Source of the DNA: Patescibacteria group bacterium
GTDB taxonomy: Bacteria; Patescibacteriota; Patescibacteriia; 2-02-FULL-49-11
DNA: 64,000 nt
Direction: 5' to 3'
NCBI GenBank assembly: GCA_041645165.1
Contig: JBAZQN010000007.1
Span: 8,318-72,317 of the forward strand
Shown: one piece after another, positions 5,691 through 62,451 of the stretch
Layout of the letters: the number at the start of each line of letters is the position of its first letter
Numbering within the stretch: the stretch's first letter is position 1
Made by a program: the position numbers and the translations under genes
The notes under the pieces: model-generated
What the model was told of the DNA's origin: nothing
Databases searched by the model: none
Seen by the model: only the letters and a program-made list of their open reading frames with translations

Positions 5691-5826
5691 TTCTCAATTT
5701 TCAATTTCTCCCTCTTCGCGGGATCCCGCGTAGCGGGACAATCAATGTCGCAATGAATCAATTTTCAAACATTGCATCATTGATTCATTGAAAATTAATT
5801 GAAAATTGGTATTTGAAAATTGGAAA

Positions 5827-6783
5827 TTACTCACTGGGTTCTCCTACAATCTCCTTCCTCACCTCCTCCAAATACCCCACCACCATTTGTCGGCATAATT
5901 CCTGTTCCTCAACGCTTTCAATCGCCGCGCACTCCTCTACATTGCCCGTCACCAAGGCGCGGCAAAGCGCTTGCTGGCGTATGCTTTCAAATGCATTGCA
6001 TGACTCTGGCTGGCGCGCGTACGCGATGCAGAGGAATTTCAGCTGCGAGCTCTCAGGACTTACAGAATCACAAAAATCTGGGGGCAGCGTGTCACCCGCA
6101 CTCGCCGCGGCTATTGCCACTTGCGTAAAGCATGAATCGCGCTTGACCCCTTCTTCCTGCGTCTCGCAATAGGCAAGCGATTGGGTAAGCGCTGCGGAGA
6201 TATTCTCCTCCCCTCCCGCACCCGCAGGCGCGGACGAGTAAGTCACGTCAAGCGCCCCCCACGCCGCGATCCGCACGGCAACCAATACGCACACCGCAAC
6301 GATGAGCAATCTGCCGCTGCCTTTGTGAAAATCCTCATCTTCCTCTTGCGAAAAAAACCACTTGATTTGGAATAGCCCTATAAGCAGCACCACCAACGCC
6401 GTGATGCAGAGCAAAATGCCTGCGACAAACCCTGCGACCCACCACCTCCCCAGTTGTGAAGGCCATGAGGCCGCCGCAAAGCTCGTTCCCACTACGCTGG
6501 CCATCATGGCAACAACGACCTGCAGCACCATCAGCCCCCACCCCCACTTCTTGCGCTTCCACAGGCCCACTGCAGTAACAAGCACGAATACGCCTGCCAG
6601 AAATAATAACACCTTCAACTGCGGCGCAAGCGCCACGCTCGTGCGAACTCGCGCAAGGCTTATCACTGCCGCAGGCGCGAACGCAACCGCCAGCAGCGCT
6701 AATCCCGTCGCCGCGCGCTCGAGTGCCACTACCTTCACGCCCCATGCAATATTTAATTGTTTATGCATATCAGCGTAACACAT
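5827..6783 (-). CDS. polytopic membrane protein with a C-terminal 8-Cys domain, function unknown
   Basis: Several predicted TM helices followed by a Cys-rich tail (CETQ...CFTQ...CDSV...CIAY...CNAF...CRAL...CAAI...CRQM). The region is GC-rich, which produces long overlapping ORFs on both strands. Confidence 0.5.
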   Translation of the reverse strand: MCYADMHKQLNIAWGVKVVALERAATGLALLAVAFAPAAVISLARVRTSVALAPQLKVLLFLAGVFVLVTAVGLWKRKKWGWGLMVLQVVVAMMASVVGTSFAAASWPSQLGRWWVAGFVAGILLCITALVVLLIGLFQIKWFFSQEEDEDFHKGSGRLLIVAVCVLVAVRIAAWGALDVTYSSAPAGAGGEENISAALTQSLAYCETQEEGVKRDSCFTQVAIAAASAGDTLPPDFCDSVSPESSQLKFLCIAYARQPESCNAFESIRQQALCRALVTGNVEECAAIESVEEQELCRQMVVGYLEEVRKEIVGEPSE

Positions 6784-6834
6784 TAACCATCCAATTCTGC
6801 CACCATTTTACCATCCTTCACCCATCCGCGCCAC

Positions 6835-7045
6835 TAAATTAATCAGCCATATCCGTCTTATCCCATCCTATCCGACTTATCCGTTCCTATCCGATCCATT
6901 CCGCTTATCCGTCTTATCCCAATATCTCCGACTTATCCGTTCCTATCCGATCCATTCCGCTTATCCGTCTTATCCCACCTATCCGTCTTATCCCAACCTC
7001 TCAAATCTAATCAACCTATCAGACCTATTCTGACTTATCCGTCTT
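6835..7045. repeat. pyrimidine-rich TATCC-type repeat array phased at about 10 bp, including a ~57-bp tandem duplication
   Basis: cttatccgt / cctatccga / ccattccgc units recur roughly every 10-11 bp. gacttatccgttcctatccgatccattccgcttatccgtcttatccca occurs twice in tandem. Confidence 0.8.
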
Positions 7046-7112
7046 ATAATCCTATCCGCCACCTCTCGCCCACCTTTCAACTTCCAGCTTCTAACTTCTC
7101 CCACTTTCTCCT

Positions 7113-8039: not shown

Positions 8040-8240
8040 AATCCAACCACCGACTTACCCGTTCCTATTTCAACTTATCTCATCCCATCCGATCAATCCA
8101 ACTTATCCGTTCCTATCCGACCTATTCCACTTATCCAGATCTATTCCAGTCTTTGCAATCCAACCACCAACATATCCATTCCTATCCGTCCTATCCCATC
8201 CTATCCGACCTATCCACTCTTATCCGCCTTATAATCCTAT
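8040..8240. repeat. second TATCC-type phased repeat array
   Basis: ccgttcctat, cttatccgttcctatccgacctattccacttatcc and cctatccgtcctatcccatcctatccgacctatcc, homologous to 6835-7045. Confidence 0.75.
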
Positions 8241-8304
8241 CCGCCACCCCCATTCCATCCTCCAACTTCCAGCTTCTATATTCTAACTTCTCCTCTCGCT
8301 CCCT

Positions 8305-8618: not shown

Positions 8619-8817
8619 TAAAGCTTCAATTCAAAATCAATTACTCACTTCAATCTTCTAACTCCTATCTTCCATCTTCCAGCTTCTAAATTCTATCTTC
8701 AAGATTCCAACTTCCATCTTCCAACTTCCCTTTCCTCCACAACTCATCAACTCAAAAACTCACAAACTAACTAATTGACTGATCAACTGATAAACCGACC
8801 AACTGACAAACTGAAAA

Positions 8818-9925: not shown

Positions 9926-10110
9926 AATTATGACATGAAGATTCTAGATTATTACCAATCTGTCTTTGCTCTCCCCCTTAAGATAAGGGGGACTTAAAAG
10001 GGAGTTATGAAAACTTGCTAAAATTTCTATTACCTCTATCCTACCACATTCCCCGCCACTTAAGCAAAAACACCCTTTGAGGATTTTCGCGATCAATCAA
10101 CCGCATTGTC

Positions 10111-10130
10111 ATTCCCGCGAAGGCGGGAAT
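10111..10130. repeat. attcccgcgaaggcgggaat hairpin, a member of the TCCCGC-N3/4-GCGGGA hairpin family
   Basis: Perfect 8-bp stem with a 4-nt loop. Related hairpins occur at 5720-5762 and 22621-22665. Confidence 0.6.
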
Positions 10131-10290
10131 CCAGAAATCACCATACTCACGTAATCACTCAACCTACAAGCTTCCTCACCCTCACCTTTGTACTACCATC
10201 ACTAGGTCTCAAATCTTTCATCTACCTCTCTGTCCTATTCAAAATGACCAAATATCAATTATCAATAATAAAACTTATGCTGGATACAAG

Positions 10291-10324
10291 GACAATTAAT
10301 CTCACGATCGTGAAAATAATTGTT
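10291..10324. repeat. 34-bp palindrome family, copy A (GACAATTAATCTCACGATCGTGAAAATAATTGT)
   Basis: Perfect CACGATCGTG core flanked by inverted AT-rich arms. See copies at 13947, 14266, 14368, 14632 and 15342. Confidence 0.85.
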
Positions 10325-10770
10325 CTCTCTTCTCTAAAATAACTGCTTATTGAGTACTACTCTTGCGCAACCCTCTGCACTCAACTCCTTCAGTGAGGTT
10401 GCCTGCAAAAAAGTGTCTCGGAGGATTTGCGGGCACGGTCTCCGACCTCACGTCGGAGGAGCAAATCCGAGAGTCAAGTGGCCAACTCCTCGCAGGGGAA
10501 TTGGACCGCGTCTTTTTCTGCAGGCAATCCGAACGCTAGCCCCCATTGCTCCATTGCCAATTATGAATCGGGACGCACTCCAAAATCCTCCCCCTATGGC
10601 TTCGCCATATCTTGATGATAAAAAGAGGGAGGTTAGGTGAGGGTGTCTGTCGCAAATAAGTATATGCCACTTTTCCCATTGCCCACACCATAATTTTCTG
10701 TTAAGGTAACTTAATCCAAAAACTTAATAAACAGTGAACTTTTAAAATTTATCCAAAGAAAGGACGGTGT

Positions 10771-11046
10771 GTGATGACAAGGGTATATGTCGTTAAAAGC
10801 GACCACTCATTGGCTCAACTTGTCTTCCCTCCAAGACAAGGGAGAAATAATACCCTGCGGAAACGTGTCAGTGGTATAGTCAAGACCGCAGAGTTCCGCG
10901 GGATATTTTCAGGAGGGGAATATGGAGTTTTTCGTCAAAATGATGGGCAGTACATCGGACGGGCTCAACATGACTACGTAAAATTAATCGAATTCTGTAC
11001 CAAACACAATGGAGGTAAGGCACCGAAAAGTATTTATGTAGTGTAG
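10771..11046 (+). CDS. hypothetical small protein
   Basis: 91-aa ORF with an RBS-like aaagaaaggacgg upstream. It sits immediately upstream of purB. No family recognised. Confidence 0.3.
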   Translation: MMTRVYVVKSDHSLAQLVFPPRQGRNNTLRKRVSGIVKTAEFRGIFSGGEYGVFRQNDGQYIGRAQHDYVKLIEFCTKHNGGKAPKSIYVV

Positions 11047-11084: not shown

Positions 11085-12380
11085 ATGATCCCACGTTATA
11101 CGCGGCCAGAAATGGGGGCGATCTGGGACGACATATATAGATTCCGCACATGGCTCAAAGTGGAGCTTGCGGCCTGTGAAGCATGGGCCGAACTTGGCCA
11201 CATACCCGAAGATGACTTGGAGGAAATCAGGACCAAGGCTCGGTTTGATGTGGAGCGGATTGCGAAAATCGAGAATGAAGTCAAACACGACGTCATCGCT
11301 TTCTTGACTAATGTGGCGGAGTATGTCGGCCCTTCGTCCCGATTCATCCATCTTGGTATGACCTCTTCCGATCTGCTGGATACCGCTCTGGCTTTGCAGA
11401 TGAAAGAGGCTGGAGAAATAATTGAGCAAGACATTCTCACTCTACGGAAGGTGTTGCGTGCGCAAGCGATTGCGCATAAAAACACAATCTGCATCGGGCG
11501 CTCTCACGGCATTCATGCAGAACCTACTTCTTTCGGCCTCAAGTTCGTTCTATGGCATGATGAGATGGATCGTAACCTTGATAGGTTACAACGTGCCATC
11601 GAAACCATATCCGTTGGGATGATGTCGGGAGCGGTCGGCACGTATGCTTTTTTGGATCCCCGGGTGGAGGAAATAGTCTGCCAGAAGCTTGGACTGAAGC
11701 CTGCCCGTATTTCCACCCAAATTATTCAACGTGACGTGCACGCCGAGTTCATGACGACGTTAGCCTTACTCGGCTGCAGCGTAGAAAAGATCGCGGTTGA
11801 GATACGCCACCTGCAAAGAACAGAAGTTTTGGAAGCCGAAGAGCCTTTTGCGAAGGGTCAGAAAGGGTCTTCGGCCATGCCGCATAAGCGCAATCCCATT
11901 GGCTGCGAAAATATTTCCGGTTTAGCCAGATTGCTGAGAACCAATGCTTTGGCAGCCATGGAAAACGTCGCGCTCTGGCACGAACGGGACATCAGCCATT
12001 CTTCGGTGGAGCGAGTCATTCTGCCAGATAGTTGTATTCTGGCAGATTACATGCTGGCACGGATGACCAAGATTCTCGAGAATCTGGTCGTCTACCCGGA
12101 TAATATGCTGGCAAACTTAAGATTGACGCGAGGCTTGATTTTTTCACAACCTGTTCTCTTGGCTTTGACACAAGCAGGAATGAGTCGTGAGGAGGCGTAT
12201 CAAATCGTGCAGACACACACAATGGCCTGCTGGCAAGAACGGAGCGATTTCAAGGCGGTCATTTTGGCCGATCGACGCATTACAAAATTGCTAAAGCACG
12301 ATACAATTGAAGCCTGCTTTGATGAGACCATTGGTCTCAAGCATGTCGATTACATCTATAAAAAGGTCGGCCTTTTATAG
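11085..12380 (+). CDS. purB: adenylosuccinate lyase
   Basis: 431 aa. The N-terminus MIPRYTRPEMGAIW and a length near 430 aa are typical of PurB. Strong RBS aaaggaggga. Confidence 0.9.
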   Translation: MIPRYTRPEMGAIWDDIYRFRTWLKVELAACEAWAELGHIPEDDLEEIRTKARFDVERIAKIENEVKHDVIAFLTNVAEYVGPSSRFIHLGMTSSDLLDTALALQMKEAGEIIEQDILTLRKVLRAQAIAHKNTICIGRSHGIHAEPTSFGLKFVLWHDEMDRNLDRLQRAIETISVGMMSGAVGTYAFLDPRVEEIVCQKLGLKPARISTQIIQRDVHAEFMTTLALLGCSVEKIAVEIRHLQRTEVLEAEEPFAKGQKGSSAMPHKRNPIGCENISGLARLLRTNALAAMENVALWHERDISHSSVERVILPDSCILADYMLARMTKILENLVVYPDNMLANLRLTRGLIFSQPVLLALTQAGMSREEAYQIVQTHTMACWQERSDFKAVILADRRITKLLKHDTIEACFDETIGLKHVDYIYKKVGLL

Positions 12381-12471: not shown

Positions 12472-13785
12472 ATGAACCCATTCGAAAAAGATACAATGAT
12501 AATCGAGGGTAAGACTAAGAAGGTTTATTACGTCAAAGGCAACGAACACCTTGCCATTTTTGAAAATAAACCAGACGTCACAGCCTTCGATGATCCCAAA
12601 TTCACTAAACAATTCGAAGCAAAGGCCACATACGCCACGACCACAACCTGCCGCGTATTCGAGCTATTGAAAGATGCTGGCATCCCTGTAGCATACAAGC
12701 AACGACTATCTGCTTCTGAGTTTCTTGCCTTACGTTGTAATATGATCCCATTAGAAGTGGTTGGCCGTCGACTTGCAGTGGGTAGTTATCTTAAGAGACA
12801 TCCAGAGCTGGCACTTGATGGCGCCTTACCACCTCATCGTTTCCACCGTCTTGTTGCAGAATTCTTTTTAAAAACTACTGGCGGCAAGTTAATTGGACGA
12901 GATGGCGAAATTCTTATTGAAGGATTGGATCCGTCAAAAGGGGAAGAGGATCCGTTTATACCCAATCCGTTCGAACCGGTATGGCAACTCTTCCACTCCA
13001 AAAAGCCAACTTGGGACAATTCTGCCAACCTTGAGCGTACCCTAAGATGCGATTCCGTTGCAGGGACGAGCATGATGCAAGAGATGGAAAAAATTCTCCG
13101 CCGGGTTTTTTTCGTCCTTGAAGGAGCATGGAATACACTTGGTTATCGTTTAGTTGATCTGAAAATTGAATTCGGTATCACAACTGACGGAAATTGCCTC
13201 GTTGTTGCCGATGTAATTGACAACGATAGCTGGCGTCTTCGCGATGCAACCTGGCAAGAGTTAAGCAAACAGCTCTTTAGGGAAGGAGCAGCCTTGGACG
13301 AAGTTGAAGAAAAGTATGGCTTTGTAGCGAGCCTGGTTGAACGATTTCGAATTCCTAAACAAGTCATGGTTTTATGGCGTGCCTCAACGAAAGATGATTT
13401 CCCAATAACTGGAATCCTACCAGGAGTCGAAGTTCAACAGATAACTTTGTCTGGACACAAATACCCGCAAGTATGCTTAGACAAGTTAGAGGAAATAATG
13501 CGTAATTACCCAGACGGTGGAGCTATCGTAGTAAAAGTGGGAATGAGTAATGGACTGGGACCAATGTTGGCCGCACGTACAACCTGGCCAGTTATTACCA
13601 TTCCCGCATCCACAAAGGATGCCCCAAGCGATGTGTGGAGCTCTTTGCATCTGCCATCACTTGTTCCGATGGCAACCATCCTATCTGATAAAAATGCGTT
13701 TGATTTTGCTCTTAATGTACTGTCTGCTAAAAATCCTGCGGTGTATATGCATCGTCAATTCGCAAATGAACAACTCGATAAATAG
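12472..13785 (+). CDS. purC: SAICAR synthetase (PurC) fused to a PurE-like AIR carboxylase/mutase domain
   Basis: The N-terminal ~300 aa are PurC-like (KKVYYVKGNEHLAIFENKPDVTAFD..., a long SAICAR-synthetase fold). The C-terminal ~140 aa (VMVLWRASTKDDFPITG...GGAIVVKVGMSNGLGPMLAARTTWPVITIPAS) resemble the PurE Rossmann core (GS-D, AG-AAHLPG-A-T--PVIGVP). Confidence 0.55.
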   Translation: MNPFEKDTMIIEGKTKKVYYVKGNEHLAIFENKPDVTAFDDPKFTKQFEAKATYATTTTCRVFELLKDAGIPVAYKQRLSASEFLALRCNMIPLEVVGRRLAVGSYLKRHPELALDGALPPHRFHRLVAEFFLKTTGGKLIGRDGEILIEGLDPSKGEEDPFIPNPFEPVWQLFHSKKPTWDNSANLERTLRCDSVAGTSMMQEMEKILRRVFFVLEGAWNTLGYRLVDLKIEFGITTDGNCLVVADVIDNDSWRLRDATWQELSKQLFREGAALDEVEEKYGFVASLVERFRIPKQVMVLWRASTKDDFPITGILPGVEVQQITLSGHKYPQVCLDKLEEIMRNYPDGGAIVVKVGMSNGLGPMLAARTTWPVITIPASTKDAPSDVWSSLHLPSLVPMATILSDKNAFDFALNVLSAKNPAVYMHRQFANEQLDK

Positions 13786-13793
13786 AAGAAAAA

Positions 13794-13836
13794 AGGCGGA
13801 CACGGAGTGAGGAACCTTGTCCGCTTTGCCATTTTT
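13794..13836 (+). terminator. putative intrinsic terminator after purC-purE
   Basis: gcggacacgg...ccttgtccgc hairpin followed by TTTGCCATTTTT. Confidence 0.4.
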
Positions 13837-13946
13837 AAGCCCCCATTTCACCCTCTCCAATATCTTCTTTCTTCCCCTCTACCGCTTTCGTCCGCTTTCG
13901 TCCGTCTCAACCAGCACTAAAATCTAAACCAACACTAAAAACGAAA

Positions 13947-13980
13947 GACAATTAATCTCACGATCGTGAGGATAATGTCC
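13947..13980. repeat. 34-bp palindrome family, copy B
   Basis: gacaattaatctcacgatcgtgaggataatgtcc. Confidence 0.85.
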
Positions 13981-14045
13981 CTTCCTGTACATTACCTCTC
14001 TCGACAATATCACATTTCCATAAAATTTTCTGTCCATATTCATAT

Positions 14046-14215
14046 GAAGCTCCGCGGGCTTACACCCGCGGTGTCTTCCTCAACAGGAGATCCGGCGGAA
14101 TCCGCTTTAAGCTGCCTGCCGCCTTCGTCCCGACATGTTGGGACTTCGGCGGGTCCGCAATCCCGCATTCATCCGCGTATCTTACGCCCGCGGTTTTTTG
14201 CGGAGGCGGATAAAG
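14046..14215. repeat. ~170-nt hairpin-rich element, copy 1 of a two-copy family (candidate ncRNA or MITE)
   Basis: gaagctccgcgggcttacacccgcggtg ... cccgcattcatccgcgtatcttacgcccgcgg ttttttgcggaggcggataaa. It is homologous to 50570-50722, and the stems differ by paired, stem-preserving substitutions. Confidence 0.6.
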
Positions 14216-14265
14216 TGAAAACATCAATGATTATAAGTATTCAGAAATGAATTTCAATGAATGCC

Positions 14266-14304
14266 GACGACAATTAAAAATACGATCGTGACAATAATGT
14301 CCCC
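14266..14304. repeat. 34-bp palindrome family, copy C
   Basis: gacgacaattaaaaatacgatcgtgacaataatgtcccc. Confidence 0.8.
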
Positions 14305-14367
14305 TTGTCTTTCCCCACTTCCCGAATATGCCATCTTCCTACTTCTATTATTGCCTTTTTCAAGAGA

Positions 14368-14546
14368 GCAATTAATTCTACGATTCAGCCGACTGAAGCC
14401 ACAAGGCCACTATGGCGAAATTGGCTCACCCGCCTGCCAACGCCTGTCAGCAATGAACGGTGACATTCATCACGTTGTTATTATCCCTGACCAACATAAC
14501 GTTCCCCGGGAAAGGCAGATGGCGGGCAGGTGACAATAATGTCCCT
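14368..14546. repeat. 34-bp palindrome, copy D, split at its centre by two nested insertions
   Basis: Left half gcaattaattctacga and right half gtgacaataatgtccc are separated by a ~44-bp insert (ttcagccgac...ctatggcgaaattggctc, 14384-14427). A ~100-bp MITE-like element (cccgcctgcc...ggcgggcagg, 14429-14530) follows. Confidence 0.7.
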
Positions 14547-14631
14547 CCTATTTCCCCTTCATCGCCAGTTCTTTCCATTTCTCGTATCTCACCTCTTCCC
14601 TCCACGCCCAATATTCTATACTATAAAGAGC

Positions 14632-14666
14632 GCAATTATTTTCACGATCGTGAAAATAATGTCCCT
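14632..14666. repeat. 34-bp palindrome family, copy E
   Basis: gcaattattttcacgatcgtgaaaataatgtccc, immediately 3' of the PaaX-like gene. Confidence 0.85.
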
Positions 14667-14698
14667 TCACCTTTTTCTATTTTCCTTGCGTCGCATTA

Positions 14699-15250
14699 TT
14701 ACAGCCCAAACATCTTTTCCGCCTGCGCCATACCGTCAAAGTAGTCTGCCCGAATGTAACGGACATACTTCCCCACCTTGTAGTACGCCGTGGTCGCATT
14801 AATCTCGTCCTGACATTCATACGGATAAGCCCACACGCTTAAATTCACGTAACGGAATCCGAGATCACGGAGTTTTTTCCGGAATGCATCGCGCGCGCGG
14901 CGAAAATCTTCAGGAATATCAAACACGACTATACGCCATTTCCCGTCCCAGTGGGGAGGTTTCATTATGGTAATCGAATCGATCGCTCTTCCTTTCAATA
15001 CCTCCTTCCCCCTCTGGGTGAGCCGATACTCCCATGCGGTACGTTTACTGCTCACCCGCTCCACATACCCTTGTCGCTCGAATCTCCGCAGCGTGCGGCG
15101 CAGCGGTTTGCGCGGAATCGAATAGCGATTCGCACCCATGCCGAAGAGCTGCACTGCATTGGGCGCCATAACAGCCACGGTGAGCATTCCAATGCCCTCA
15201 AGAATTTTCCAAATGGTATCAGCGTACGCTTTTCCTTTCTTGGGTCTCAT
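14699..15250 (-). CDS. PaaX-like transcriptional regulator (wHTH N-terminal domain plus PaaX_C-like C-terminal domain)
   Basis: WDGKWRIVVFDIPE matches the PaaX hallmark WDGKWLLLL-E. The C-terminal RRARDAFRKKLRDLGFRYVNLSVWAY also has a Cas2-like character. Confidence 0.45.
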   Translation of the reverse strand: MRPKKGKAYADTIWKILEGIGMLTVAVMAPNAVQLFGMGANRYSIPRKPLRRTLRRFERQGYVERVSSKRTAWEYRLTQRGKEVLKGRAIDSITIMKPPHWDGKWRIVVFDIPEDFRRARDAFRKKLRDLGFRYVNLSVWAYPYECQDEINATTAYYKVGKYVRYIRADYFDGMAQAEKMFGL

Positions 15251-15341
15251 AAAAGTTGTAAATAAGTTACATTTTCATTCCCTAAAAAGAAGCGGCAAGA
15301 ATAAGAGCGATATGGTAATATTACTACGATATTATTTAAAA

Positions 15342-15415
15342 GACAATTAATGTCACGAGCCAACTTCGCCATAGTAGCCGATGGCTACGTCGGCTGAATC
15401 GTGAAAATAATTGTC
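15342..15415. repeat. 34-bp palindrome, copy F, with a ~41-bp central insertion
   Basis: agacaattaatgtcacga | gccaacttcgccatagtagccgatggctacgtcggctgaat | cgtgaaaataattgtc. The insert is the reverse complement of the one in copy D (14384-14427). It lies in the divergent PaaX-like / ECF sigma promoter region. Confidence 0.75.
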
Positions 15416-15512: not shown

Positions 15513-16058
15513 ATGCCTCCCGAACCAATACCAACTCGCGACAAGGAACTTGAGGAGCGTTTTTTGGCTGCGTATGACGCCCAGGTGAAATCCATTTTCC
15601 GCTACATCTACTACCGCACTGGCCAGGAAAAAGAGGAAACGCAAGAGCTCACGCAGGAAGTATTCATGCGCACATGGGCGTACCTGCAAGAAAATAAGCG
15701 CCCCATCGACGACATCCGCGCTTTCCTCTTTCAAGTGGCCCGCCATGTCATCGCGGACCGGTGGCGCAAACACAAACCTGCGCTTTCCCTCGAAGAGTTA
15801 TCTCCTCAAGAAGAGCCTGCCACCCCGCCGCTCCCGCACGCATCCCTCGACCTTCTCATCCTTGAACAGCACCTTTTGAAGCTCCCCGTACGCCACAGGG
15901 AAATATTAACGCTGCGCTTTATCAGCGACCTCTCGACTGAAGAAACAGGGCGCGTTCTCGGCATTAGCGCGAATAATGTGGCAGTACTCACCAATAGGGC
16001 GATTAAAAAATTAAGAAAATTACTTCCCACTACCATGCATGATGTATTGGATGCATAA
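15513..16058 (+). CDS. RNA polymerase sigma-70 factor, ECF subfamily
   Basis: 181 aa. Region 2 (QELTQEVFMRTWAY) and a region-4 HTH (LTLRFISDLSTEETGRVLGISANNVAVLTNRAIKKLR). Confidence 0.8.
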   Translation: MPPEPIPTRDKELEERFLAAYDAQVKSIFRYIYYRTGQEKEETQELTQEVFMRTWAYLQENKRPIDDIRAFLFQVARHVIADRWRKHKPALSLEELSPQEEPATPPLPHASLDLLILEQHLLKLPVRHREILTLRFISDLSTEETGRVLGISANNVAVLTNRAIKKLRKLLPTTMHDVLDA

Positions 16059-16107: not shown

Positions 16108-16207
16108 CCCGCCTGCCAACGCCTGTCAAGGGGGACGGTAACATTCTTAAGGTAAAAATTCTCCCTCATATACGGCACGTTCCCGGGGGAAGGCTGTGGC
16201 GGGCAGG
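16108..16207. repeat. ~100-bp MITE-like element, copy 2 (cccgcctgccaacgcctgtca...ggc-gtggcgggcagg)
   Basis: It shares both ends and ~70% of its interior with 14429-14530. A truncated third copy is at 37928-37975. Confidence 0.65.
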
Positions 16208-16302
16208 CAATTAATTTTCAATATCACAATGTTTGAACATTAGGTCATTGGGATTTATTTGAAAATTGAGAATTGAAAATTGAGAATTGAAAATTACACA
16301 TT

Positions 16303-17451
16303 ATGGATCCTCTCGAACAACAACTTAAATCCCTGAATTCCTCGCCTGCGAGCGAGCCTGATCCGCAGTGGGTGGCGAGCGCGCGCACGAAACTTGCGTG
16401 GACGATGGAATATCCAGTACAAGGAGCGCTACCGCGCGCCACTCCCCTGCCGCGCCTGCGCTTCGGGCTGCGCAGAATATGGATGACGGTTTCAATATCG
16501 CTCCTCGTGGTGCTCCTCCTAGGGTCAGGCATCACGTACGCGGCGCAGGGCGTCATGCCGGATAACATCCTCTATCCGGTAAAAATTGCAAGCGAAGAAG
16601 TTCTCCTTGGCGTCACCAAAGATCCCGTACAACGCACCAACCTTGAACTGCGGCTTGCCAACCGCCGCGTTGACGAACTCCAAGCACTCTCGCAATCGGA
16701 AACATTAGACGCAGACATTGCAGCAGAACTGCACGCGCGTTACCAAAAGCATATCACTGAAGTCCTGCAGGCACTTCCCACCATACCCCAAGACAAAGTG
16801 CAAACGGTCACGGAAACGCTTTCCCAAGATACAGAAGAGCACGCGCGCATTACGCAAGAGCTGGATGTGCGCGCCTCATCCGAGATCAAAGGAGAAATCA
16901 AAGCATCGGTAAAGGCATCACTTGAGCAGATGCGGCAATTCACCGAAGAAACCTCGCGCGCCGCTCACTACTTGAAAGAAAAGAGCAACCGGCCTACGAA
17001 ATGGAAGGTGAAGGTTGAGACGAACACGACAGGCGAAGCCCATGTAAAAGTTGAGACCGAAATGGGGAATAATGAAAAAAAGGAAAAACGCGAAATAGAG
17101 TTTCGTGCCACGCCGGGAGTGCCGCTCACCGTGACCTCAACCTGGCCCATGATAAAGGAGCGGCGCGAGAAAAAAAATGACGAGGAAACTGAAGATCAAG
17201 AGCCCTCACGCGTGCGCGCCACCACAACGATAATATTTGACCTTGACCAAGCGACCACCACCGTGCCTTCAAACACCATTGAACAGCTTGAAAAGATGAA
17301 ACGTATCCTCAATAAAGGATCCTTCTTCCAGTTCCAGTCCGATATGAGCGCGGAGGGCGGCAGCGTCGAACAGCGCGTGGAAACCGATATTAAAGGACAA
17401 TCACACATCCGCGTTGATTCACAGGAGGATTCTCAAGAGGACGATGATTGA
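16303..17451 (+). CDS. putative anti-sigma factor (N-terminal anti-sigma region, single TM, periplasmic DUF5667-like domain)
   Basis: Immediately downstream of the ECF sigma gene. TM segment ISLLVVLLLGSGITYAA, then a coiled, charged periplasmic region with a pattern typical of DUF5667. Confidence 0.45.
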   Translation: MDPLEQQLKSLNSSPASEPDPQWVASARTKLAWTMEYPVQGALPRATPLPRLRFGLRRIWMTVSISLLVVLLLGSGITYAAQGVMPDNILYPVKIASEEVLLGVTKDPVQRTNLELRLANRRVDELQALSQSETLDADIAAELHARYQKHITEVLQALPTIPQDKVQTVTETLSQDTEEHARITQELDVRASSEIKGEIKASVKASLEQMRQFTEETSRAAHYLKEKSNRPTKWKVKVETNTTGEAHVKVETEMGNNEKKEKREIEFRATPGVPLTVTSTWPMIKERREKKNDEETEDQEPSRVRATTTIIFDLDQATTTVPSNTIEQLEKMKRILNKGSFFQFQSDMSAEGGSVEQRVETDIKGQSHIRVDSQEDSQEDDD

Positions 17452-22564: not shown

Positions 22565-22796
22565 TTCAAATCCATAATTTTCAAGGTTCAATTTTGCAAT
22601 TTTTCCCCCGACTTGTCGGGGGATCCCGCTGCGGCGGGACAATCAATGTTACAATGATCCAATTTTCCAATGTTTGAAAATTGTCGCATTGAAAATTATT
22701 TGAAAATTGAGCACTGGGAATTGAAAATTATCAAGGTTGGGATTTATTTGGACACTGGACATTGGAATTTGGAAATTGAAATACACTCATTACTTT

Positions 22797-24107: not shown

Positions 24108-24202
24108 CTATTCACCTATTTCCGCCATAGGCGGACAAGCGCGCCTGCCCCGCTCGCCACGTTGCATAACTGTGGCCGCATGGCTGGGGCGAATTAGAGA
24201 AG
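24108..24202. repeat. ~95-bp direct repeat, copy 1 (ctattcacctatttccgccataggcggac...ggctggggcgaattagagaag)
   Basis: About 95% identical to 26699-26792. It contains the hairpins ccgccataggcgg and gcccc..gccac..gtggc..ggggc. Confidence 0.85.
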
Positions 24203-26688: not shown

Positions 26689-26698
26689 ACTATTCCCC

Positions 26699-26792
26699 TA
26701 TTCCCCTATTTCCGCCATAGGCGGACATGCGCGCTCGCCCCGCTCGCCACGTTGCATAACTGTGGCCGAATGGCTGGGGCGAATTAGAGAAG
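26699..26792. repeat. ~95-bp direct repeat, copy 2
   Basis: ctattcccctatttccgccataggcggacatgcgcgctcgccccgctcgccacgttgcataactgtggccgaatggctggggcgaattagagaag. Confidence 0.85.
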
Positions 26793-57279: not shown

Positions 57280-58085
57280 TTATTCACTACTCTGGGTCTT
57301 TTCTAATCCAACCGCCAAGAAAACCGAATCCTGTCTTAAGAACTGACCAATATTCTGCTTGTAGTACCTGGCGTTCGCATACGTCAAACTGGTGTCCCTG
57401 TCATACATGTGCCCTGTAAACTTCCTCTGTTCGTCGAAGGAGCCTGATTTCCAGTCAATCCTCATTGATCCGTAGGGGTAGTAGTCCAATAATTGTACCA
57501 TGCCTCCGGTGCTATTCGTAGCGACGTTAGAACCCGTCAGATGATCCGTGTGGATGTATTGGAGGGTTGAGCCTTCCACTGTGGCAACCAGCTGGCTTCC
57601 TGCGTAGATATGCTTACTATTCTTCGTCCCATCGCTATTATACAGCTTATTCGCATACCGCGTCGTCACGCTTCCTGAAACCAGTTTCGTCCTCTGGCCT
57701 GTATGGTCGTACTGATAGGTGACGGTGGAACCTGTTTTCTGGGATTGGGTCAGCTGGTTGGCGTAGTTCCATGAGTGAGTCCAGGTGGAATCAGAGGTCA
57801 GGTTGCCGTTGTTATCATACGCGTAGGTCACGCCGTTGACCGACGTTGCCGCATGGGGGTTCGCGTAATTGGTGCCTTGGTAGAGGTAAGCCCCGACATC
57901 TGACTTGTTAGAGATGTTGCCGATGGCGTCGTAGGAATACGTTTGCGTGAAGTTTCCTGGACTGGTGGATGTGGCGTTGGTGGCGATAGCGGAGGTAAGG
58001 CGATGCAGATCATCATAGGCATGGGTGATGGTATCCGCGTCTGGCTCTGCATTTGGCGCGATTGCGGGGGCTATTTCGTCGAATA
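57280..58085 (-). pseudogene. RHS/YD-repeat C-terminal fragment, truncated and frameshifted remnant
   Basis: 57280-57831 encodes YDHTGQRTK...YANARYYKQNIGQFLRQD but stops right after the RHS core. 57828-58052 continues in another frame. The DNA is near-identical to 59200-59640 and 61590-62040. Confidence 0.55.
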
Positions 58086-58420: not shown

Positions 58421-59656
58421 TCATTCCTTAATAACGTTATCAACTTTATTCCAATCAACCAACTCGCCTTGTTGGTTATTCCAATAATCCAGATTTGTTC
58501 CTTGTCCATGAACGGCAGGGTCTGGTTTGAAGAACGTCCTGATAGTGCCGTCCGGATTGTAGGAACCGAGCGTGTTCGCTGCTTCGTCATAGACTCTGAC
58601 AATGCCATCTTTATCAATCTTAGTCGGCAACTTATCGCTCTGTGCTCTCTGAAGAAAGTCGCGAGCCAAATCTGTATATTCGTCAGCGCTCCGAGCGCCG
58701 AATTCGCTAGCATGGTCCAAGTAATGTTCTTTATATTTTGTAGGGCTGGCCCACGCCTTAGCTCCTTTCAACCCTTTCGACGCATCCGCCACATTATCGA
58801 AGTGGCCCGCAACGAGTCTCGCTGCCTTACCGTATCCGCCTCCAACGGATAGAAGCCCAATGCCTACGCCTGCAAGAGTAATACTCTTCTGAATTTTGGT
58901 CGAGTTTGGATTAAGCCAAGTCTTTACGAGATCATAGACGTCCCAGACCGTAAAACCCGCTTCAACTGCAAGGTACATTAATCCTGCGATACTGAATGTA
59001 ACCGGTTCAGTGCCGAACGGGTCAATATATTTCATCGGATTATTATTCGCGTATGCATAGCTGTTCAATCCTTGTGGATTGCTCAACAGTGCTGCCGACT
59101 GCGCTCCATCTCGAACACCAATAGTAAGATACACGGGATCCTGTGATAAGAACCGTCCAATCCCCTGCTTGTAATACCTCGCATTGGCATACGTTAAACT
59201 GGTATCCCTATCAAACTCATGCCCCGTGAACTTCCTCTGTTCGTCGAAGGAGCCTGACTTCCAGTCAATCCTCATTGATCCGTAGGGATAGTAGTCCAAT
59301 AATTGTACCATGCCTCCACTACTGTTCGTAGCGGCGTTCGAGCCGGTGAGGTGGTCGGTATGGAGGTATTGAAGTGTCGTACCCTCGACTGTTCCTATGA
59401 GCTGGCTTCCTGCGTAGATATGCTTGGTTGCCGTGGTTTGCTTGATATTGTAGAGCTTGTTGGGATAGTGGCGGGCATAGCCGCTCACGCCGTCATAGTA
59501 CTTGGTCCTTTGCCCTGTGTGGTCGTATTGGTAGGTGACGGTGGAGCCTGTTTTCTGGGACTGGGTAAGCTGGTTAGCGTAGTTCCAAGTGTGAGTCCAC
59601 GTCGAATCTGACGTGAGATTGCCGTTGTTGTCATACGCGTAGGTCACGCCACCCAC
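58421..59656 (-). CDS. orphan RHS C-terminal cassette: RHS core plus a distinct C-terminal toxin domain of unknown type
   Basis: YDHTGQRTKYYDG...DRDTSLTYANARYYKQGIGRFLSQDPV (RHS repeat-associated core), then a ~230-aa unrelated C-terminal domain ending HGQGTNLDYWNNQ. Confidence 0.6.
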   Translation of the reverse strand: MGGVTYAYDNNGNLTSDSTWTHTWNYANQLTQSQKTGSTVTYQYDHTGQRTKYYDGVSGYARHYPNKLYNIKQTTATKHIYAGSQLIGTVEGTTLQYLHTDHLTGSNAATNSSGGMVQLLDYYPYGSMRIDWKSGSFDEQRKFTGHEFDRDTSLTYANARYYKQGIGRFLSQDPVYLTIGVRDGAQSAALLSNPQGLNSYAYANNNPMKYIDPFGTEPVTFSIAGLMYLAVEAGFTVWDVYDLVKTWLNPNSTKIQKSITLAGVGIGLLSVGGGYGKAARLVAGHFDNVADASKGLKGAKAWASPTKYKEHYLDHASEFGARSADEYTDLARDFLQRAQSDKLPTKIDKDGIVRVYDEAANTLGSYNPDGTIRTFFKPDPAVHGQGTNLDYWNNQQGELVDWNKVDNVIKE

Positions 59657-59696
59657 TGACGTTGCCGCGTGGGGATTGGCGGTTTCAGTGTCGGAA

Positions 59697-60843: not shown

Positions 60844-62451
60844 TTATTCAATCTTAAAATCAATCCTATACTTCTCGGCTGTTTCATTCGCAAAATTATG
60901 TATCTGCTCTTGCGAAGCGTTTGGATTTTTACTGATAAACTTCTCCCACCTTGCATTATACTCGTTTGATAACTTCTGATGTGTCCCATCCGGTCCCTTC
61001 TGCCACCATGAACCGTACTTGGGATCATGGACATTAATACCGGCTCGCTCAAAGAATCCTCTAAAATTTTCCGTTTGCGGCAACATATGGTGCGCGTCGA
61101 ACCCGCTCCCCGGATTCTTTCCAGTGAGTTCAATTAAGTTACCCCTGAAATGCCCTGAGGTAAAACTCTTAAAGTTCATCGCTCTGTCGACCGCTTTTGC
61201 TGCGTCACTCGCCTTATCCGCAACCCTCGTCACCCGTGCCGCTGCTCCCAACCCGGTCGCGAAAGGAATAGCGGCGCCGCCAATATCAAGCCCCAGGCTC
61301 AACATTTCTCCCTTCACGTCTCCTCCATGAGCAATCGCACCACCTAATTTGTAAAGATCGTACGCGATGAAGCCGATATCAATAAAGGTATCAAGAAACT
61401 CACCTCCCTTGTCAACATACTTGAGAGGATTGTTGGTGACGTAAGAGTAAGAATTGAGGTATTGAGGATTGGAGAGATACTCTCGCATCCTCATGTTCGT
61501 TCCTTGTTGGATTGCCTGCTCGTCCCCGATAGAGAGGAATACGGGATCCTGCGACAGGAAACGCCCTATGTTCTGCTTATAATACCTCGCATTGGCGTAG
61601 GTAAGACTGGTGTCTCTATCGAACTCATGCCCCGTGAACTTCCTCTGCTCGTCGAAAGAGCCTGATTTCCAGTCTATCCTCATGCTGCCATACGGGTAGT
61701 AGTCCAATAATTGTACCATGCCTCCACTGCTGTTCGTAGCGACGTTCGAGCCAGTGAGGTGGTCGGTATGGAGGTATTGGAGGGTTGAGCCTTCCACGGT
61801 GGCAATCAGTTGACTTCCGGCGTAGATGTGCTTGGTTGCCGTGGTTTGCTTGATATTGTAGAGCTTGTTGGGATAGTGGCGGGCATAGCCGCTCACGCCG
61901 TCATAGTACTTGGTCCTTTGCCCTGTGTGGTCGTATTGGTAGGTCACGGTGGAGCCGCCTGTGGATTGGGTAAGCTGGTTAGCGTAGTTCCAAGTGTGAG
62001 TCCACGTCGAATCTGACGTGAGATTGCCGTTGTTGTCATACGCATACACGGCAGAGCCGACTTTTGTCACTGCATGAGGGTTGGCGTAATTGGTGCCTTC
62101 ATAGAGATACGTGCCTTGGTCAGATGCCGTGAGAATATTCCCAATCGCGCTGTAGGTGTACGTTCTTCCGGTGTTATCGCCATTCGCCGCGCCGGTAATT
62201 GAAGAGGTCAAAAGCCTATGCAAATCGTCGTAGGTATAGGTGATGGTCTTGCCTGCGTTGGTGCTGGACGCTTCTACGATCTGAGTGATATTCCCCACCT
62301 GGTCGTATGACCATTCTTGAGGTATCACATTTTTACGATCGTTAGCTTTTGATACCTCTGCATCATCACTTGCAATCCACCCCCTATCAATAACGATCGC
62401 TATATATTGGAAGTGGATATGAACGAGTATTGAACGCCATAATGCTCTCAC
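60844..62451 (-). CDS. RHS/YD-repeat protein (C-terminal portion) with an AHH-family HNH-like nuclease toxin domain
   Basis: YD repeats (TYTYDDLHRL, YAYDNNGNLT, YQYDHTGQRT), the RHS core (DRDTSLTYANARYYKQNIGRFLSQDPV) and C-terminal GSGFDAHHMLPQ (the AHH motif). Confidence 0.6.
   Translation of the reverse strand: MRALWRSILVHIHFQYIAIVIDRGWIASDDAEVSKANDRKNVIPQEWSYDQVGNITQIVEASSTNAGKTITYTYDDLHRLLTSSITGAANGDNTGRTYTYSAIGNILTASDQGTYLYEGTNYANPHAVTKVGSAVYAYDNNGNLTSDSTWTHTWNYANQLTQSTGGSTVTYQYDHTGQRTKYYDGVSGYARHYPNKLYNIKQTTATKHIYAGSQLIATVEGSTLQYLHTDHLTGSNVATNSSGGMVQLLDYYPYGSMRIDWKSGSFDEQRKFTGHEFDRDTSLTYANARYYKQNIGRFLSQDPVFLSIGDEQAIQQGTNMRMREYLSNPQYLNSYSYVTNNPLKYVDKGGEFLDTFIDIGFIAYDLYKLGGAIAHGGDVKGEMLSLGLDIGGAAIPFATGLGAAARVTRVADKASDAAKAVDRAMNFKSFTSGHFRGNLIELTGKNPGSGFDAHHMLPQTENFRGFFERAGINVHDPKYGSWWQKGPDGTHQKLSNEYNARWEKFISKNPNASQEQIHNFANETAEKYRIDFKIE

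Follow-up and report, generated by a model that had tools for sequence, protein, structure and literature searches.

The window analysed here is a stretch of 64,000 nucleotides (nt) of DNA from a member of the Patescibacteria (contig JBAZQN010000007.1), for which the nearest named genome is Candidatus Uhrbacteria RIFCSPLOWO2_02_FULL_49_11. It contains a gene-free gap of 913 nt at positions 13786–14698, running from the stop codon of a purC-purE fusion (13785) to the stop codon (14699) of a gene for a 183-residue protein that matches the Pfam family PF20803 (PaaX_M) and is here called mini-PaaX. Copies of a palindrome lie in and around the gap, and we propose that they are the cognate sites of mini-PaaX.

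The gene order is purB (11085–12380, + strand), purC-purE (12472–13785, +), the gap, and mini-PaaX (14699–15250, −), followed by genes for an extracytoplasmic function (ECF) sigma factor (15513–16058, +) and a DUF5667 protein (+). The orientations of purC-purE and mini-PaaX place the gap between convergent genes. HU is also among the called neighbours, and there are no paa genes among any of these. A preliminary description of this DNA had presented the gap as a gene-free hotspot of about 900 bp, packed with repeats. Its coordinates are exact, and the source record that supplied the gene calls (ENA ERZ27249422 k141_80972) has none there. The description was also right that no credible open reading frame (ORF) is present and that the small ORFs overlap the repeats: the four ORFs of 90–94 residues gave no Pfam matches, every ORF of 30–94 residues crosses palindromes or inserts, and none is conserved in the related loci L005, L065 and L145 (L numbers denote fetched loci). 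On these grounds the small ORFs are ruled out as genes.

The dominant repeat is a palindrome of 33–36 bp, with the consensus GACAATTA-N5-ACGATCGT-N5-TAAT(T)GTCC. A pattern for its 22-nt core has four matches, against 0.01 expected. Three intact copies lie in the gap, as had been described before. These are palindrome 1 (GACAATTAATCTCACGATCGTGAGGATAATGTCCC, 13947–13981), palindrome 2 (14269–14303, found by sequence search and alignment) and palindrome 4 (14631–14665), which lies 33 nt past the mini-PaaX stop codon. Palindrome 3 is split, again as described, with a left half at 14367–14384 (read and aligned), a right half at 14530–14545 (sequence search), and inserts between them. Two further copies, both outside the gap, had been overlooked. 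One is upstream of the mini-PaaX gene (15342–15415), and is split at ACGAT^CGT by a 40-nt insert (15358–15397, minus orientation). The other, the sixth copy (10290–10325), is in the other long gene-free region of the window, upstream of purB. All six palindromes are within 5.2 kb around the mini-PaaX gene, and there are none in the remaining ~59 kb. A CRISPR array was considered and rejected, because the start-to-start distances within the gap are irregular (322, 98 and 264 nt) and Tandem Repeats Finder (TRF) reports no array.

Four syntenic relatives were recovered (L005/L006, L065/L043 and L145), with protein identities of 77–82% and a downstream palindrome within ~50 nt of the stop codon of the gene. 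L005/L006, in which PurCE is 77% and the regulator 82% identical, has a gap of 377 nt with two palindromes. The outer of these (L005:4853) is the positional orthologue of palindrome 1, and the inner resembles palindrome 4 in its distance from the stop codon (~35 nt). L065/L043 (Uhrbacteria, 81%) has two palindromes in a gap of ~455 nt, and L145 (82%), which has neither purB nor purC-purE at its mini-PaaX locus, has a single downstream palindrome. Palindrome 4 is the canonical downstream copy, being found in the same position at L005:5013, L065:4584 and L145:6601. The upstream palindrome is intact in all three (L005:5716–5750, L065:3876–3909, L145:5877–5910). The palindromes nearest to mini-PaaX and nearest to purC-purE are thus positionally conserved in relatives. 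The interior of the gap cannot be aligned to the closest relative and is not conserved, palindrome 2 is absent from the relatives, and gap length among the window and its relatives is 377, ~455, 581 or 913 nt. Since the relatives have one or two downstream palindromes, the ancestral state is one or two copies. Palindromes 2 and 3, a 176-nt element and the inserts (all described below) were added in the lineage of the window.

The association of palindrome and gene extends well beyond these relatives. A scan of metagenome contigs with the pattern CAATTA-N5-ACGATCGT-N5-TAAT found 55 loci, of which some 20–25 are clearly of the same family and on contigs of the Candidate Phyla Radiation (CPR). 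Homologues with a palindrome on each side were identified using tblastn at L016/L058 and L043 (80–81% identity), L032 (35%), L055 (40%) and L041 (29%), and each of these loci bears its own variant of the palindrome sequence. A broader survey covered the 80 best loci of the family in GTDB, using a strict and conservative definition of the palindrome by its centre motif. Near-perfect palindromes of 24–66 bp adjoin the gene in at least 27 of the 80 loci, and are present on both sides in 12. The density of motif-type palindromes is 0.53/kb within ~450 nt of the gene and 0.004/kb elsewhere (39 against 2), the two distant ones being all that was found in ~505 kb outside the gene flanks. Downstream copies begin at a median of ~19 nt after the stop codon, and occasionally overlap it. 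By these counts the module of gene and palindrome is common, though perhaps not universal.

The palindromes have a constant centre and variable arms. The centre always has the form RC-NNNN-GY (ACGATCGT, GCGATCGC, GCATATGC, GCTATAGC, ACGGCCGT, GCGGTCGC and GCTATCGC), and the arms differ by lineage. Within one palindrome the left and right arms are 91% symmetric. Upstream and downstream copies of the same locus have an arm identity of 0.87; between loci the value drops to 0.34 and does not exceed 0.64. The flanking copies of one gene thus form a cognate pair. Paralogues in one genome have different palindromes (L106 and L128). The correlation between protein similarity and arm similarity is weak (r = 0.11, reached by 73 of 2000 permutations). 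Mismatches between arms comprise 3 GT, 3 AC and 22 of transversion type, and the absence of a G-T excess fits recognition of duplex DNA rather than of an RNA hairpin. Strict covariation of the arms was considered as proof of a hairpin and rejected, because the N5 half-sites mix freely in the lineage of the window (TTTTC, ATCTC, AAAAT, TTGTC and others). Symmetry across lineages is likewise no proof of a hairpin, as a homodimer predicts it equally.

The protein encoded beside the gap has a winged helix-turn-helix (wHTH) domain followed by a Cas2-like PaaX_M domain. The PF20803 match scores 84.3 bits against a cut-off of 24. The AlphaFold2 model has a mean confidence score (pLDDT) of 82, with helices at residues 47–60 and 79–91 and strands at 63–69 and 72–77 in the wHTH region. 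Its best structural matches by Foldseek are PaaX (8a39), Rv0674, VapD and Cas2, those to Cas2 and VapD having a probability of 0.97–1.0 and E = 0.004–0.1. A profile built from 25 members also has E. coli PaaX (8a39) as its best match of solved structure, and its wHTH matches AspA, MarR and PadR; there are weak sequence matches of the wHTH to AspA (E = 0.004) and TubR. There is no C-terminal PaaX_C domain, the protein stopping after the M domain (183 residues against 316), and the TIGR02277 score of 40 bits is below the PaaX equivalog cut-off of 264.55. The thresholds for Cas2 are not reached either (TIGR01573, 20.6 against 24.5 bits; PF09827, 19.1 against 23.8 bits), and the defence-system models of PADLOC gave weak Cas2 matches alone. 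None of the genes called up to ~10 kb away in either direction belongs to a Cas family, the screen for cas1 having covered that stretch alone.

Two sequence features of the family are of interest. The motif WDGKWRxVxFDIPE is nearly invariant, and D111, the Asp of the 'hhFDI' motif on strand β-1, is invariant in all 25 members and replaced in E. coli PaaX. We take D111 to be at the position of the catalytic residue of Cas2. At the N-terminus there is a conserved hydrophobic segment (residues 5–25, ILxxLxxxGxLxxAxxAPNAxQLL), modelled with low confidence as a helix at 5–20. It could anchor the protein in the membrane or belong to the DNA-binding domain.

The family comprises 4,619 clusters at 50% identity (E ≤ 1e-10), nearly all of 180–200 residues. 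There are at least 595 matches in GTDB species genomes, often with two loci per metagenome-assembled genome (MAG), and the named records among the matches listed are all CPR/Patescibacteria, except for a few MAGs labelled otherwise. NCBI annotation of family members is frequently 'Cas2'. One and the same Uhrbacteria MAG carries paralogues at 81% and 50% identity to the query, mini-PaaX.

The position of the upstream palindrome suggests what it does. A promoter for mini-PaaX can be read at 15318–15346 on the minus strand, with a −35 of TTGTCT inside the end of the palindrome, 17 nt of spacing, and a −10 of TAATAT; the spacing and the −10 block are conserved in L005, L065, L145 and L016. At its gene-proximal end the palindrome reads TAATTGTCT or TTGCTC in the window and in these four loci, and 17 nt further on there is TAATAT, TATATT or TACTAT in a single alignment column, with a conserved block following in four of the five. 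By eye, L032, L109, L122 and L082 have a −35 in the arm, 16–18 nt from a good −10, and L075, L094, L104, L140 and L143 have a −10 or extended −10 in or beside the arm, single matches in such A+T-rich DNA being weak. Read in this way, the geometry of palindrome and promoter is that expected for the operator of an autorepressor.

We hypothesise, with a probability that we put slightly above one half (roughly 0.55), that the palindromes are the cognate sites of mini-PaaX, that the upstream site serves in autoregulation, and that the gap consists of a conserved downstream site together with lineage-specific duplicates and later insertions. Mini-PaaX would then be a small autoregulated DNA-binding protein of a C-terminally truncated PaaX type, with a wHTH and a Cas2-like dimerisation domain. 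The dimer would bind the palindrome, and its pair of wHTH domains would recognise the outer arms (CAATTA/TAATTG), in parallel to E. coli PaaX. Because the mini-PaaX promoter shares its −35 with the upstream copy, binding would repress the gene. The copy past the stop codon, a constant feature of the module, could loop with the upstream site; alternatively, it could form a barrier, of protein or hairpin, between the convergent transcripts of purC-purE and mini-PaaX. In this genome the downstream site would have been duplicated locally, so that there are four copies where relatives have one or two, and small hairpin-forming mobile elements would have inserted afterwards, two of them exactly in a palindrome centre. 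What the analysis shows is the layout of the gap, the recurrence of the module in different lineages, the match between flanking copies, the overlap with the predicted promoter and the fold of the protein; the binding, the repression and any role of the extra copies we infer.

This proposal is modelled on PaaX, the regulator of the phenylacetate regulon in E. coli and Pseudomonas, which likewise has an N-terminal wHTH followed by a Cas2-like PaaX_M domain and is the best match both by sequence and by fold. PaaX represses its own promoter by occlusion, and its operator consists of two widely spaced inverted hexamers, TGATTC-N27-GAATCA (PMC9493321). This long site is broadly similar in kind to the palindromes described here. 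Mini-PaaX differs from PaaX in its length, in having no C-terminal ligand-binding domain and no paa genes nearby, and in retaining the Cas2 Asp. Its sites also differ, being near-perfect palindromes with a conserved centre and having a second copy past the stop codon.

Several observations weigh against an operator function. The gap lies between convergent genes, where an operator is unnecessary, and it is hard to see what a second site past the stop codon would do as an operator. Within the same lineage, several dispersed copies are also between convergent genes or at stop codons, and some copies are scored as terminator-like, their hairpins having pyrimidine-rich tails. In some lineages perfect symmetry extends over 40–66 bp, which is more than a simple dimer footprint requires. 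The strict scan detects a palindrome in only about one third of the 80 loci, and in A+T-rich DNA a promoter call carries little weight. In this genome the 40-nt insert splits the promoter-overlapping operator, and autoregulation may therefore be impaired. Finally, the invariance of the β-1 Asp, lost in E. coli PaaX, hints at a domain that is catalytic and not purely structural.

The terminator-like scores bear on a different explanation, which we regard as unlikely, namely that the palindromes function as RNA. As stem-loops in transcripts they would insulate purC-purE and mini-PaaX, which converge, by terminating transcription in both directions or by stabilising 3′ ends, and the gap may also encode small RNAs. 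This would be consistent with the short distance of downstream copies from the stop codon, and with the A-tract/stem/T-tract shapes seen in several lineages (L085, L116, L128 and L072). A simple scan scores a palindrome as terminator-like in the window (one copy, minus strand) and in L005, L065 and L145 (one each). However, an RNA-level function leaves unexplained the 87% arm identity between the two copies of a gene alongside their lineage specificity, and the restriction of the palindromes to this gene family. The upstream copies overlap the −35 or −10, and are therefore outside the gene's own transcript. The arms show no G-U tolerance. The stems of the family in the window are A+T-rich, folding as DNA with −3 to −8 kcal/mol, and they have no clean U-tract, the tails being mixtures of C and T. 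They have no match in Rfam.

The best candidate for a small RNA is an element of 176 nt (14040–14215, minus strand), which is G+C-rich and has four hairpins and imperfect inverted ends. The preliminary description had listed it as one copy of a 170-nt hairpin-rich repeat. The strong folding stands (z = −4.6 on the plus strand and −3.75 on the minus strand), but not the repeat: blastn-short in the window and blastn against ~140 fetched loci gave no second copy, so that no repeat family is demonstrated, and the element is absent from L005, L065 and L145. A sigma-70-like promoter (14230–14257, minus strand, TTGAAA-16-TATAAT, with 11 of 12 positions matching the consensus, which is the basis of the call) lies 13 nt from palindrome 2 and points into the element. 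On the minus strand the order is therefore promoter-like site, element and palindrome 1, an arrangement that would also suit RNA-level function of the palindrome. From its sequence, the element could be a small RNA under palindrome control, or a decayed miniature inverted-repeat transposable element (MITE). Searches for known RNA families (Rfam) and tRNAs found none. The suggestion that the gap is a cluster of non-coding RNA genes is accordingly not upheld, there being no Rfam match and no conservation; the 176-nt element is the one candidate exception.

Two kinds of small insert are found in the palindromes. The first is a hairpin of 40–42 nt with the pattern TCAGCCGAC-N19-22-GGCGAARTTGGCT. 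In palindrome 3 it is 42 nt long (TCAGCCGAC...GGCGAAATTGGCT, 14385–14426, plus strand, by alignment) and is inserted at ACGAT^CGT. Another copy is that in the upstream palindrome, in the opposite orientation, and a third (L005:1671–1710) is inside a different palindrome (1654–1728), again between ACGAT and CGT. The insert is thus at exactly the same point in three palindromes, in two genomes and in both orientations, which implies that it is mobile, or is copied between sites very precisely. A palindrome with its 40-nt insert folds as a single long hairpin (DNA, −18.3 kcal/mol, z = −5.9). A search for centre-split palindromes in the 80 other family loci found none, centre inserts having been found in the lineage of the window alone.

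The second kind is a MITE-like element of 102 nt (14428–14529, plus strand, by alignment), which has the inverted termini CCCGCCTGCCA...TGGCGGGCAGG and is nested in the centre of palindrome 3, one base beyond the hairpin insert. The order within this palindrome is left half, 42-nt insert, one original centre base (14427), MITE-like element and right half. The preliminary description had recognised the element, and sequence comparison and alignment add a second copy in the window (16108–16207, plus strand), with others at L046:~2795–2890 and, in the gap equivalent to that of the window, at L145:~6703–6800. The family is ~100 nt long with termini CCCGCCTGCCAAnGCCTGTCA ... GGCTrTGGCGGGCAGG, and its four copies in three genomes have conserved ends, a variable interior and no ORF. 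Both inserts resemble MITEs: they are short and encode no protein, their termini are inverted, their ends are conserved around a variable interior, and they occur as several copies in several genomes. They differ from MITEs in that no target-site duplication can be resolved; the flanks of the MITE-like copies differ from each other and no clear duplication is readable. The 40-nt insert is also unusually small for a MITE, and is known only from one precise position at the palindrome centre.

The presence of foreign DNA three times at exactly ACGAT^CGT, together with the invariant Asp, raises the possibility of a system like that of the repetitive extragenic palindromes (REP) and their associated tyrosine transposases (RAYT). 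The palindromes would then be hairpin or cruciform elements, recognised and nicked at the centre by the Cas2-like domain and spreading as DNA, and the gene with its repeats would approximate to a REPtron. In both cases a single gene stands between palindromes that are cognate to it, the repeat differs from one lineage or paralogue to another, and extra copies are intergenic, often at the 3′ ends of genes, and clustered. Here, moreover, the centre is conserved and the arms vary, copy number in the gap ranges from one to four among close relatives, and the position of a copy relative to a conserved hairpin element (described below) differs between L005/L046 and the window. However, the protein is not an HUH/Y1 transposase, its fold being unrelated (Pfam, NCBIfam and the predicted fold give wHTH and PaaX_M alone), and there is no GTAG motif. 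In the window and the 80 loci counted above, the copies are few and local, compared to the tens to hundreds per genome of a REP/RAYT system, and centre inserts were found in this lineage alone. The paralogues within one genome are old and synteny is stable, so that there is no sign of recent transposition of the module. All in all, we consider a REP/RAYT-like system improbable. An insertion sequence with the protein as its transposase was rejected for similar reasons, the paralogues within a genome being highly diverged and synteny being stable across relatives of 77–82% identity.

A related and more speculative possibility is that mini-PaaX is more than a repressor, namely a sequence-specific nuclease or recombination factor that acts at the centres of its palindromes when these are extruded as hairpins or cruciforms. 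With its Cas2 fold, it would be REPtron-like or proto-CRISPR-like, and would copy palindromes beside its gene and integrate short DNA at ACGAT^CGT. Such an activity would account for the array, for the invariance of the Asp at the catalytic position and for the exact placement of the three inserts. The C-terminal domain shares with Cas2 and VapD the ferredoxin-like fold and the β-1 'hhFDI' motif with Asp at the catalytic position. It differs from them in its sub-threshold scores, in its fusion to a wHTH, and in having irregular adjacent repeats rather than an array of repeats and spacers. We consider such an activity very unlikely.

The inserts also bear on the suggestion, made in the preliminary description, that the gap is a landing pad for small mobile DNAs, and on the view of it as a functionless region that passively accumulates them. 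For a minority of the content this is correct: a 42-nt hairpin and a 102-nt MITE-like element lie in one palindrome centre, and the same MITE family has entered the equivalent gap of L145. The region thus holds two or three MITE-like inserts, its length varies between relatives and its interior is unconserved. The description does not hold for the palindrome, the dominant repeat, which is a conserved partner of the adjacent wHTH/Cas2-like gene and not incoming mobile DNA. The outermost palindromes keep their positions in relatives, the association with the gene recurs in different lineages of Patescibacteria, and the inserts amount to ~320 of the 913 nt, even counting the 176-nt element. Passive accumulation is therefore quite unlikely as an account of the whole gap. 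The number of repeat families in it, put earlier at five or more, comes to three (the palindrome, the 40–42-nt insert and the MITE-like element), plus two trivial tandem repeats.

Palindromic sites around the gene of a small wHTH protein are also a feature of centromere-type clusters, such as parS/ParB, AspA and TubR. The palindrome core TTTCAC..GTGAAA bears a weak resemblance to parS half-sites. The present module differs in that the neighbouring genes encode no partner of ParA or TubZ type, and that a genome has several paralogues, each with its own site.

The components of the module are of kinds already known: a PaaX-type wHTH regulator, inverted-repeat operators and MITEs. A literature search found nothing relevant on PaaX-like proteins in CPR bacteria, and no description of a CPR mini-PaaX with paired cognate palindromes, a conserved centre, a copy past the stop codon, a local array or a centre-targeted 40-nt insert. 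To our knowledge, gene regulation in CPR/Patescibacteria is almost unexplored. Each family member together with its own palindrome is a candidate protein–DNA pair, which could be tested by electrophoretic mobility shift assay (EMSA) or DNA affinity purification sequencing (DAP-seq) even for uncultured organisms, and the variants of arm and protein across the family provide a natural series for studies of specificity. The family is large, often with several paralogues per genome, and is frequently mis-annotated as Cas2. If the Cas2-like domain does catalyse a reaction on palindromes, the module would be relevant to how Cas2 and repeat-associated proteins arose.

The remaining features of the gap lie close to purC-purE. 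Directly after the gene, a GC-rich hairpin with a T-run (13795–13836, plus strand) can be read from the sequence, and is conserved in L005 (by alignment) and L065; it is probably the terminator of purC-purE. It is followed by two short tandem repeats (13882–13940), which are absent at the matching place in L005 and are treated as trivial. TRF confirms the direct repeat reported earlier, CCGCTTTCGT (10-nt unit, 2.3 copies, 13882–13904), and adds an unlisted one, with an 18-nt unit in 2.0 copies (13905–13940).

Logan contigs of the same strain (100% identical) start and stop within palindrome 4 (14638–14658), and family members in public data are often on contigs of 0.8–1.7 kb. The palindromes appear to break short-read assemblies, which would explain why genes of the mini-PaaX family are so often found on contigs of this size.

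The sixth palindrome, upstream of purB, has its orthologue beside genes for a 143-residue protein and a rhomboid in L046. Close to it in the window (10398–10532) is a conserved hairpin element of ~125 nt, which is 74–85% identical in three other genomes (L005:1581–1653; L046:81–157, reverse strand; L067:7569–7678) and has no Rfam match. For two full-length copies RNAalifold predicts 37 pairs, 7 of them with compensatory changes. In L005 and L046 the element breaks off at one shared point, and in place of its 3′ half there is a palindrome with a C/T-rich tail. In L145 (6553–7133) the mini-PaaX gene is directly beside genes for a 150-residue protein and a rhomboid. The two long gene-free regions of the window, 9926–10773 and 13786–14698, may derive from a single ancestral gap that was divided by insertion of the pur genes; alternatively, L145 may have lost these genes.

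Other repeats were noted elsewhere in the window. A G+C-rich repeat of 95 nt is present at 24108–24202 and 26698–26792, the copies being 95% identical and 2.6 kb apart. Related A+T-rich elements, made of TTGAAAATTG-type units, are found immediately upstream of genes at 5733–5843, 16219–16303 and 22634–22792, and one of them extends as far as the start codon (ATG) of the DUF5667 gene. Low-complexity, pyrimidine-rich arrays of TATCCGnCTTATCC and CTTCCAGCTT units are present at 6850–7100, 8076–8290 and 8644–8727; a CPR genome does not usually contain long stretches of non-coding DNA. Finally, three repeats of ~480 nt, at 57308–57865, 59118–59681 and 61526–62086, are 60–85% identical with a spacing of 1.8–2.4 kb, and are probably paralogous genes.

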